The notes under the pieces: generated by a model
What the model was told of the DNA's origin: nothing
Database searches by the model: none
What the model saw: only the letters and a program-made list of their open reading frames with translations
Translations under genes and position numbers: made by a program
IMG/VR virus record: IMGVR_UViG_3300042549_002778
Location: 1-62,167 of that record
Source of the DNA: a virus
Lineage: Duplodnaviria > Caudoviricetes
Strand: one strand, 5' to 3'
Length of the DNA: 62,167 bases
Shown: positions 21,419-23,429 of the stretch, in pieces
How positions within the stretch are numbered: the stretch's first letter is position 1
Layout: each line of letters starts with the position of its first letter

Positions 21419-22896
21419 TGACAGATAATGCTATTATCACGGCTGCTCAAAATACTGTGATTGCTATTAATAATCTTGGCAAGAGTCTTTCGGGGCTAAG
21501 CGGACCCACAGGGCCGACTGGTTCAATTGGGCCAACTGGGCCAGGTATTGGAGCTACTGGCGCAACTGGGGCAACGGGTCCAACCGGTCCAAGCGCAATA
21601 GGGCCAACCGGTCCAATCGGCCCGACCGGCGCAATAGGGCCGACGGGTCCAAGCGGAGGCCCAGTCGGTCCGACTGGCTCCACAGGTCCTACAGGTGCAA
21701 TGGCAACCATTTTAGGAACAGTAAATGTTTTGTCTTTTGGAGCTGTAGGTGATGGTGTAAATAATGATACAACAGCATTTTCTAATGCTATATCATCCAT
21801 ATCTGCCGGAACAGTAATTGTCCCTCCCGGTTTGTATTTAATAGATCCTATAACTATTCCTTCTTATATAAATTTAGAAGGGACGACTGTAGGGCCATTT
21901 GATGGTGTAAATCCAACATCTTCAACGACTGCGCCTACCATAATTGCAAATTCCGATACAGCGTCTTTAATAACTTTGGATGGATATAAAAGCTCTGTTA
22001 TCAACCTATTGTTTTATTACAAAACAACTGGAGCAGCGGCCCAAGTAGATCCAACATCATCAACACCCACAAGCTTAAATCCTACAATATTAATGACATC
22101 TGCTGGAGGGCATTTTGTCAGTAACTGCACATTTGTAAACAGTTTTACTGCCATTAAAATAGAAGTTGGTCGCTGCACTGTTCAAAATTGTTTAATTGGG
22201 GCTTATTATCGCGGTATTTTAGTTGATGGAGCTTTAGATTGGGTAACAATTAGTAATGTTCAAAATCAAGTAATGTGGGATACTTATACTGGTCTTTCTT
22301 ATCCTCAAAATATTGATGCTTGGGTATTAAATAATGGAATTGCGTTAGAAGCGAAAAAATGTGATAGTTTAATAGTTAGTAATTTTAGTGTTTATTCTAG
22401 ATATTGCGGAATAGCATTTGAAGGATCTCTTGGAGATAATTGTTATGGTCGAGGAACAAATATTGATTTAGATTATGTTGCATATGGTGTATTAGCTACA
22501 ACAACAAATAATACCGGTGGTGGATTTAAAATCACAAACATGGATGTCGGCGCAAATATGTCTGGCATCGGAACTGTTGGGCAAGTTTCTGTTTATCTTC
22601 CGTCTGGTTCTGCTGAACCTGGAAATATTATATGGGAAAACGGCTCAATACGCGGAACTTGGGCATTTAATAGTGGCAAACCAGAAGTAAATGACGGAAG
22701 TATATGGATAAATAATATTAGAGGCATAGACGGAACTTATACCGTCGGTCAGTTGCCGTCGGCTTCATTATCCGGTTCTGGTGCAAAATTATTCGTAACT
22801 GATGCTTCTGCGACAACATTTGCCTCAATTGTAGTTGGTGGCGGGTCGAACAAAGTGCCAGTTTATTCGGACGGAACAGATTGGAGAATCGGATAA
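21418..22896 (+). CDS. Collagen-linked tailspike (pectate-lyase-like beta-helix)
   Basis: Short GPT block; [17 protein letters not shown]-terminal [12 protein letters not shown]. Confidence 0.8.
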
Positions 22897-23429
22897 TGCC
22901 GCTTTTAAAAGGCAAAAGTCAGAAGACGATATCCTCAAATATCTCTGAACTGATGCATACCGGACGCCCCCAGAAACAGGCCATAGCCATAGCTTTAGAC
23001 GCTGCGCGACGGTCAAGAGCCTCTGGCGGCGCGAATAAAAAGGTGTTTCATGGCCCAATCGTCACGCCAATCCCCGGAAGGACTGATCGGCTTCCTATCC
23101 ATGTGTATTCTGGAAGCTACGTCATTCCTGCGGATATTGTTTCCGGTCTAGGCGAAGGCAATACGCTGGCTGGCTACGAGGCCATAAAGCGTATGTTTGG
23201 CCATCATCTGAAATCCAAATATGGCGTTCGCGGCTCCTATCACGAAAGCAGGGACATTGTTCCTGTTATCGTTGCTGGCGGCGAATACATTTTGACCCCG
23301 GAAGAGGTGGAGATTGCGGGGAATGGTGATCTTGATAACGGTCACGCCATTCTGGATGCGTTTGTAAAATCACAGAGGCTCAAATTGAGAAAGAAGCTGG
23401 CAAAGTTACCGGGCCCGGCGAAGGATTAG
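22896..23429 (+). CDS. GG-motif protein with duplicated G(S/E)Y(V/I) module; candidate processing enzyme
   Basis: [16 protein letters not shown]...QKQAIAIAL, then RASGG, then GPI..PGRTD.LP...GSYVIPADIV and GGEYILTPEEV. Confidence 0.7.
   Translation: MPLLKGKSQKTISSNISELMHTGRPQKQAIAIALDAARRSRASGGANKKVFHGPIVTPIPGRTDRLPIHVYSGSYVIPADIVSGLGEGNTLAGYEAIKRMFGHHLKSKYGVRGSYHESRDIVPVIVAGGEYILTPEEVEIAGNGDLDNGHAILDAFVKSQRLKLRKKLAKLPGPAKD

Follow-up and report, generated by a model that had tools for sequence, protein, structure and literature searches.

In the tape measure of phage JBD30, residues 1022 to 1066 of gp46 are predicted to form a hook consisting of a short β-hairpin and two helices, and the passages on gp46 propose that this hook keeps the protein anchored to the baseplate once the C-terminal domain has departed, as in T5 (PMC11445458). 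The T5 tape measure pb2 is cut after R1127, as mapped by mass spectrometry, and the 43 C-terminal residues of the product pb2* were modelled in a crevice between the hub subunits of the baseplate (PMC10038345). For lambda, the account of gpH in a 2025 paper has a peptide of ~14 kDa cut from a glycine-rich region, with site and catalyst unknown and with residues ~690 to 817 unresolved (PMC12617516). Here we describe a protein of 177 amino acids (aa) that carries two tandem units homologous to this tape-measure module. Its gene lies in IMG/VR record IMGVR_UViG_3300042549_002778 (Duplodnaviria; Caudoviricetes), positions 1 to 62,167, and this whole stretch of 62,167 nucleotides (nt) is referred to below as the window.

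The family to which the protein belongs is real, abundant and unnamed, and represents the tape-measure joint module in a twinned, stand-alone form carried by short-tailed phages. In our best reading, on which we are evenly poised, the protein would serve as a virion-internal docking frame that is ejected together with the internal proteins, its A.GG motifs being junctions or cleavage sites. The original prediction, made from the letters of the DNA, had presented the protein as a candidate GG-processing enzyme or receptor. The observation behind it is confirmed, and its interpretation is partly supported: a receptor or docking role of the twin units is plausible by analogy with tape measures, while the enzyme reading is unsupported because neither a strict catalytic triad nor, in fold searches that covered mainly the N-terminal hairpin, a protease fold was found.

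Twin units homologous to a tape-measure module

The 177-aa protein is built from a basic N-terminal module (N-module; isoelectric point 11.6 over aa 1 to 41), an RASGG junction and two units, A and B, separated by a linker (Table 1). The strings quoted in the original prediction are all present, with HGPI..PGRTDRLP...GSYVIPADIV at aa 52 to 82 and VPVIVAGGEYILTPEEV at aa 122 to 138, and the basic N-terminal part followed by RASGG is as it described. The internal second copy that it had seen is also real. When the family alignment was divided into aa 50 to 103 and aa 119 to 177, hhalign matched unit A to unit B (97.1%, E = 7.3e-11, 39 columns, 64 to 102 versus 120 to 158).

An exhaustive search returned 3133 cluster representatives (1585 at 1e-10), and family-wide counts given here refer to the best 150 of them, which span 87 to 1318 aa and were parsed with hidden Markov models (HMMs) of the three modules. 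The unit-B HMM finds the A region in 77 of the 150 representatives and the unit-A HMM finds the B region in 48. Judged by their sequences, units A and B are a true duplication, beyond chance. Each has its own set of conserved residues: G61, R62 and D64 (150 of 150), N89 (149) and T63 (143) in unit A, and E130 (148 of 151), D154 (147) and R161 (146) in unit B. The family alignment contains no conserved Cys. Unit B closes the protein, its end lying 0 to 1 residue from the C terminus in 122 of the 133 representatives with an N-A-B architecture.

The N-module matches phrog_2423, whose function is not annotated, with aa 1 to 49 aligned to positions 1 to 49 of the 52-position model (E = 1.8e-17). 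This module alone explains nearly all of the 139 phage records matched (Acinetobacter, 79; Caulobacter, 19; Pseudomonas, 14; others). It also occurs as stand-alone phage proteins of 43 to 70 aa or fused to enzymes, for example a Nudix hydrolase (BFVD A0A6J7W8E3), and is often located outside structural modules.

The resemblance to tape measures that the original prediction had pointed out proved correct. The motif SD.IPA.LS.GE[FY]V, back-translated and run on IMG/VR, was found in at least 119 stretches, compared with ~0.04 expected by chance (a rough estimate). In 80 loci, 70 open reading frames (ORFs) with this motif typically show the succession [FL]A.GG, GPGT.TSD.IPA.LS.GE[FY]V and often a second A.GG. 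Pfam tape-measure domains were detected in five of the nine long motif ORFs scanned, and the unit follows Tape_meas_lam_C in both of the lambda-type ones. A tblastn search with one such unit matched 799 phage records, a tape measure being annotated in 37 of 40 evenly spread rows. A profile of 68 tape-measure units aligned with unit A (hhalign, 90.8%, E = 1.2e-6) and with unit B (85.7%, E = 5.5e-6), and both follow the unit sequence profile G.G..[ST]D.[IL]P..L..GE[FY]V...A..V...G. In the tape-measure phrogs 3547 and 6090, family members give weak matches at the profile positions to which the canonical unit also aligns.

The unit HMM recognizes lambda gpH at residues 754 to 778 (independent E value, 1.4e-7), D3112 orf45 at 581 to 627 (1e-15) and JBD30 gp46 at 1022 to 1068 (7.8e-14). 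The HMMs of units A and B match lambda gpH weakly (hhalign, 1.7% and 6.1%; scores of 19.4 and 23.2 against a shuffled mean of 12.8 and maxima of 20.9 and 21.8), and the link to lambda therefore rests on the canonical unit HMM and on the position after Tape_meas_lam_C. The homologues of lambda gpH 700 to 853 (120 listed, those with names all tape measures) are 99 to 100% identical there and unfit for a diverse profile. This unnamed family is thus tied to a short module that lambda, JBD30/D3112 and hundreds of actinophages have in their tape measures. In lambda, the module sits in the part of gpHC that is unresolved by cryo-electron microscopy, close to the cleavage for which the 2025 account gives neither site nor catalyst (PMC12617516).

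Pfam and NCBIfam hold no model for the family or the unit, and no PHROG annotation describes the unit. A word-based search at E ≤ 1e-3 collected 1884 family proteins of 97 to 310 aa, none of which carries a functional name or a Pfam domain. A literature search by motif strings returned nothing relevant to the unit, and the paper on Sulfitobacter phage GT1 contains nothing about the 177-aa gene.

An AlphaFold2 model built from a 55-sequence alignment agrees with the compact, pseudo-dimeric domain that had been proposed. The mean predicted local distance difference test score (pLDDT) is 89.1 and the predicted template-modelling score 0.69, and each of the two units consists of a β-hairpin and two helices; a single-sequence model (mean pLDDT of 41.7) was unusable. 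The pLDDT is 90 to 97 over aa 1 to 40, falls to a block mean of 69 near aa 41 to 50 and to 62 to 67 near aa 101 to 120, and is below 50 at aa 114 to 116. The secondary structure of each modelled unit is that described for the JBD30 hook, with predictions on both sides of the comparison.

The structural check suggested in the original prediction gave a two-unit model, but Foldseek matched nothing in the PDB at E ≤ 0.001, the best hit being a KH/STAR domain (E = 0.11). With VIA-align, in a wide search and a second look, all rows with Z ≥ 3 cover the N-terminal hairpin only (aa 1 to 51; Z ≤ 6, generic), and the A-B domain reached a Z of 2.7 at most, to KH domains and T4 Arn. Since these searches covered essentially the hairpin alone, the description of the A-B domain as having no known fold is provisional. 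The BFVD matches are uncharacterised phage proteins only, together with many proteins of 43 to 70 aa that match the N-terminal hairpin. Two other candidates were rejected: the crassvirus cargo protein 1 domain, which is the nearest named ESM Atlas cluster (0.76, under the lead threshold, and unseen by Pfam), and a single chance match (E = 0.62) in a profile search of solved-structure sequences. The remaining ESM Atlas matches are unnamed viral clusters.

The hook of long-tailed phages (JBD30 gp46 1022 to 1066, lambda gpH ~736 to 790 within gpHC, and D3112 orf45 581 to 627) therefore shares with units A and B homologous sequence, the same predicted hairpin and two helices, and flanking A.GG motifs. 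It is, however, present in one copy, near the C terminus and inside a tape measure of 850 to 1160 aa, whereas the 177-aa protein has two tandem copies, stands alone in a short-tailed phage, is capped by the unrelated N-module and ends in a conserved LPGPxKD. Unit B, unlike the tape-measure hook, lacks the G.G..SD.IP arm. The setting also differs from the C-terminal region of a long-tailed phage's tape measure, as the gene module of the 177-aa protein contains an SU10-type adaptor and a nozzle-type gene.

Insertion sites, cargo and A.GG motifs

The architecture is N-A-B in 133 of the 150 representatives and A-B in 14, while B, N-A and N-A-A-B were found once each. Inserts of more than 60 aa lie between the N-module and unit A in 74 of the 133 N-A-B representatives, between units A and B in 15 and at both places in 1; 45 have neither, and 88 have such an insert at a single junction. 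The two stretches of low pLDDT coincide exactly with these two insertion sites. By its module content, the 177-aa protein is the minimal, cargo-less form of the family.

Among the 93 representatives of at least 260 aa, Pfam identified ART-PolyVal (6), ADPrib_exo_Tox (1), InPase (2), NUDIX (2), GNAT (2), nucleotidyltransferase (1) and DUF6098 (1) as cargo, the rest having no Pfam domain at E ≤ 0.001. Such a domain repertoire is ascribed, in the account of phage-type polyvalent proteins, to proteins that are packaged in the virion and injected (Iyer et al. 2017, PMC5512222). The relatives of the 177-aa protein resemble these proteins and T4 Alt in that they carry ART-PolyVal, InPase, NUDIX, GNAT and nucleotidyltransferase domains and have their genes among virion genes. 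Polyvalent proteins are, however, described as strings of 2 to 15 domains (PMC5512222), whereas the family is a fixed N...A...B bracket with one insert. The 177-aa protein has no enzyme or Pfam domain and its longer relatives carry one enzyme domain, fewer than the two or more that define a polyvalent protein, and the embedded zincin peptidase typical of that class was not found. With its two fixed insertion loops, the N...A...B frame has the look of a natural vehicle that brings proteins into bacteria alongside the phage genome.

The borders of the modules are marked by A.GG motifs, an association already pointed out in the original prediction. The N-module ends in GG in 130 of 135 representatives. 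Of the same 135, 88 have an A two residues ahead of the GG at this junction, and the position before it is R in 70 and K in 31. Unit A has an A.GG within the preceding 35 aa in 123 of 149 representatives, and unit B has one in 117 of 150; in the window protein, RASGG is 8 residues before unit A.

The same motif is frequent in the internal proteins. Compared with shuffled sequences, the 2132-aa protein has 11 A.GG for 4.6 expected, the 1192-aa protein after the portal has 7 for 1.2, and 55 homologues of the giant protein across the clade have 318 for 172.8, whereas the adaptor has 7 for 7.1. The count in the family of the 177-aa protein (314 for 42.1) is inflated by an AAGG within unit B. A fourfold excess was also observed in the neighbouring GNAT protein and its 98 homologues in the loci (58 for 13.9); its source is the AKGGRAR motif conserved in these GNAT proteins, a reminder that raw A.GG counts may be misleading. 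Neither unit was found elsewhere in the window, where the giant proteins carry A.GG motifs without the unit.

T5 provides a cut of known position. Its pb2 (NC_005859; 1219 aa) contains two A.GG in all, and the mapped cut that yields pb2* and pb2C falls exactly between R1127 and AEGG, a coincidence expected by chance in ~2 of 1218 cases. This is the motif type found at the module borders of the 177-aa family ([RK]/A.GG, the slash marking the cut); the passages of the T5 paper on the cleavage make no remark on AEGG (PMC10038345). In lambda gpH, A.GG motifs at 707, 711, 718 and 734 would give fragments of 77.4 to 79.8 kDa and 12.5 to 14.8 kDa, and the reported ones are of ~78 and ~14 kDa. By analogy, A.GG can be a processing site, and R41/A42 is the predicted cleavage point that would free the N-module of the 177-aa protein. 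These predictions (A.GG as a cut site, the four lambda candidates, and R41/A42) are testable in laboratory phages. The parallel with T5 extends to docking, since the stretch of 43 residues that precedes the cut was modelled as docked in the hub of the baseplate (PMC10038345), the role proposed here for the unit. T5 differs in that no unit was detected in pb2 and that pb2C has a metallopeptidase motif, which is absent from the 177-aa protein.

The enrichment of A.GG in internal proteins (11, 7 and 318 in the comparisons above) and the T5 cut directly ahead of AEGG would also suit a different role, in which the A-B pseudo-dimer is itself a peptidase, acting in cis or in trans, that cuts A.GG, removes its own N-module and processes the giant internal proteins. 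The catalyst of lambda gpH cleavage is, in the 2025 account, still to be named (PMC12617516). Neither a polyvalent zincin-type peptidase nor a prohead protease was detected by Pfam in the 16 window proteins scanned, and none is named by PHROGs in its 16. Conserved polar residues are present as well (R62, D64, N89, E130 and D154), among them the invariant acidic D64 and E130. We nevertheless consider a peptidase quite improbable. The domain that had been proposed to cut GG matched no protease family in Pfam, PHROGs or NCBIfam, Gly-Gly-specific or self-processing peptidases (C39, adenain/Ulp-like, S74) included, and no protease fold was found by Foldseek against the PDB, where nothing appeared at E ≤ 0.001, or by the VIA-align searches, which covered mainly aa 1 to 47 and barely the A-B domain. 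A strict Ser/His triad is excluded by replacements: S83 is kept in 138 of 150 representatives and is G (9) or A (3) in the other 12, and H150 is kept in 141 of 151 and replaced in 10 (by F, C and S, among others). In addition, the site of cutting is present in T5 pb2 while no unit was detected there, and a unit of ~40 to 55 residues, made of a hairpin plus helices, is small for an active site.

A broader version, in which the unit specifies or itself catalyses cleavage at [RKFY]/A.GG, as one copy in cis in tape measures and in trans as the stand-alone twin, is unlikely as well, if slightly less so. If true, unit-driven cleavage would explain the conversion of lambda gpH into gpH* and gpHC, at A707, A711, A718 or A734, and a JBD30-type cut, and a trans-acting twin protein would mature the giant, A.GG-studded internal proteins and free the enzyme cargo in short-tailed phages.

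Gene order and a possible docking frame

Gene order was compared in the closest 80 IMG/VR loci, with counts restricted to loci with room; these loci all belong to a single clade, and the counts therefore do not represent independent events. Where 3 kb or more of DNA is available upstream, a homologue of the nozzle gene precedes the gene of interest in 73 of 73 loci. A GNAT gene is downstream in 63 of 64 loci (at most 120 nt away in 60), and among loci that extend 1.5 kb or more downstream, 54 of 54 contain a homologue of the giant internal protein. The conserved order is thus nozzle, 177-aa gene homologue, GNAT and giant internal protein. It recurs in those of 32 genome-contig loci that are long enough; GNAT follows the gene in 27 of the 32, which include prophages on contigs of Ancylobacter (1.25 Mb) and Acidisoma (881 kb). 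Cargo-bearing relatives of 341 to 594 aa occupy the same slot. The best reading places the family in a lineage of short-tailed phages and prophages that is widespread and uncultured.

The window itself reads as a podophage genome of ~62 kb. The ATG of the 177-aa gene overlaps the TAA stop of the tail-fibre gene upstream and has GGAG 9 to 12 nt ahead of it. Because MPL opens 128 of 136 aligned N-modules, this ATG is taken as the true start rather than the TTG at 22881. The original prediction placed the gene just upstream of the ejection polyprotein; the two are indeed near each other, but the GNAT gene, which begins 1 nt past the stop codon, lies between them. In podophages, the genes for small ejection proteins such as T7 gp13 and gp14 and P22 gp7 are flanked by the nozzle gene and the genes for the large internal proteins, which is the slot of the 177-aa gene. 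No sequence or profile similarity of the 177-aa protein to podovirus ejection proteins (T7, P22) was found with PHROGs.

Table 1. Features of the 177-aa protein and of the surrounding genes in the window
Feature	Position	Strand	Description
177-aa gene (P0001)	22896..23429	+	177 aa plus stop; cargo-less N-A-B family member
N-module, aa 1-45	22896..23030	+	Basic two-helix hairpin (helices 9-21 and 26-42); conserved MPL start
RASGG, aa 41-45	23016..23030	+	A.GG junction motif; first cargo insertion site; predicted cleavage point R41/A42
Unit A, aa 50-103	23043..23204	+	GP..PGRTD.LP; β-hairpin (strands 66-71 and 75-77); helices 79-85 and 90-101
Linker between units A and B, aa 104-118	23205..23249	+	Low-confidence loop; second cargo insertion site
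Unit B, aa 119-177	23250..23426	+	VP.IVAGGEY hairpin (strands 121-126 and 131-133); helices 135-141 and 146-169; terminal LPGPxKD
SU10-type adaptor gene	18661..19371	+	PF24175, E = 1.4e-19
681-aa virion structural protein, nozzle position	19373..21418	+	phrog_3287, E = 1.2e-57
Tail fibre	21418..22896	+	Collagen-repeat and pectate-lyase-like (Pfam and PHROGs)
GNAT acetyltransferase gene	23431..23901	+	Tightly coupled downstream of the 177-aa gene; PF00583, PF13508
2132-aa internal virion (ejection) protein	23913..30311	+	Two lysozyme stretches; 11 A.GG motifs; PF18013, E = 1.4e-44
Portal gene	55238-57463		
1192-aa polyvalent-type protein	57460..61038	+	Directly after the portal gene; 7 A.GG; DUF6321, E = 9.6e-14; weak ART-PolyVal match

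Taken with the homology to the tape-measure hook, this gene order and the type of cargo suggest how a docking frame could work. The N-module and units A and B would fold together into one compact frame, whose two loops, one following the N-module and the other separating unit A from unit B, would be where relatives hold host-acting enzymes, the window protein being the empty frame. The twin units would dock this frame inside the tail channel or at it (the lumen of the nozzle or portal), comparably to the 43 C-terminal residues of T5 pb2* and to the JBD30 hook. The 177-aa protein would then leave with the giant internal proteins at infection, and [RKFY]/A.GG at the module borders would act as hinge or cleavage points that release the N-module or the cargo. 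We infer presence in the virion, docking, ejection and cleavage, the location in the virion being derived from synteny and cargo type because no family member comes from a cultured phage with virion proteomics.

That reliance on synteny and cargo is one of several points that weigh against a docking frame. Regarding the proposed role of the unit, the unit HMM gave no match to T5 pb2 (best score, −2.2); pb2 is alone among tape measures in having been seen with the segment ahead of its cut docked. Equating the hook with the T5 anchor relies on the comparison made by the JBD30 authors in the passages on gp46 (PMC11445458). No structure shows the partner of the unit, as that of lambda sits in the unresolved N-terminal part of gpHC in the account of gpH (PMC12617516). 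Regarding the protein itself, the window member has no A.GG before unit B, and the fold searches tested only the N-terminal hairpin well and the A-B domain barely. The N-module occurs as a stand-alone protein outside structural modules, for example in the T7-like phage phiEap-2 at 11.4 kb of 40.5 kb, and therefore is not a dedicated virion signal. Finally, a full-length homologue is present in only 1 of 50,697 phage records, the metagenomic MW202675.1.

In other phages, the N-module stands by itself in early or middle regions, which, together with its basic character, would fit a small non-structural protein, for instance one binding DNA through the helical N-module, that is merely sited in a late operon. 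The hairpin also has weak matches to IHF and RuvA domains (Z of 3.5 to 4.3 over 31 to 36 aligned residues), although such values are common for helical hairpins. This explanation is very improbable, given the strict position of the gene between nozzle and internal proteins, the fact that two thirds of the protein are homologous to a tape-measure module and the relatives that bear enzymes typical of injected proteins.

The tight coupling to the GNAT gene raises another possibility, that the 177-aa protein is a packaging adaptor or partner of the GNAT, i.e., a split form of the enzyme-carrying relatives in which the GNAT is brought into the virion non-covalently. Besides the adjacency in 63 of 64 loci and the 1-nt spacing in the window, the presence of a GNAT domain inside the frame in 2 of the 93 long relatives speaks for it. 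However, cargo-bearing members also retain a separate GNAT gene beside them, so the GNAT is not simply detached cargo, and the fused GNATs are distant from that of the window (no phmmer match; one match at E = 0.17 with the clade GNAT HMM). A complex prediction for the 177-aa protein and the neighbouring GNAT scored 0.00 in a run without controls and counts neither way. Overall, we regard a GNAT partner as doubtful, with a low probability.

Other genes of the window and related loci

The window also encodes a Mu gpT-like major head protein and a 712-aa phrog_5880 protein. No tape measure was found among the window proteins scanned with Pfam, PHROGs and HMMs, and NCBIfam gave no match for the 177-aa, GNAT, nozzle and 712-aa proteins.

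Both giant proteins have further distinctive segments. Residues 309 to 361 of the 2132-aa protein (window positions 24837 to 24995) match Peptidase_S74 weakly (E = 0.0014, below the Pfam cut-off). Peptidase_S74 is the self-cleaving intramolecular chaperone of endosialidases. The S74-like stretch directly follows a glycine run and so may represent self-processing of a second kind in the giant internal protein. The 1192-aa protein has its DUF6321 at aa 13 to 80 and contains three copies of a short module, A[DN]GG ... DPY..[IV]Q.AA[KR]. The related PHROG profiles 34011 and 16028 (50 to 55 positions) match both this protein and cargo-bearing relatives of the 177-aa protein.

A relative with one unit was found in Synechococcus phage MinM2, of a cyanophage group, at positions 7302 to 8186, three genes upstream of a giant RelA/SpoT-domain protein. 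This gene and those of the 65,014-bp records OL906435 and PP438419 are named "calcium-binding protein," "extracellular solute-binding protein" or "hypothetical protein," none of which is supported here; no paper on phage MinM2 or Pag-Yong1 was among the matches listed. In the head-gene region of the window, a Cpn10/GroES-like co-chaperonin gene was identified at 444 to 860 (PF00166, E = 1.8e-8). An Endonuclease VII and HNH protein, possibly a homing endonuclease, is encoded at 4249 to 4914, where it separates the gene for the major head protein from those for the tail fibres.

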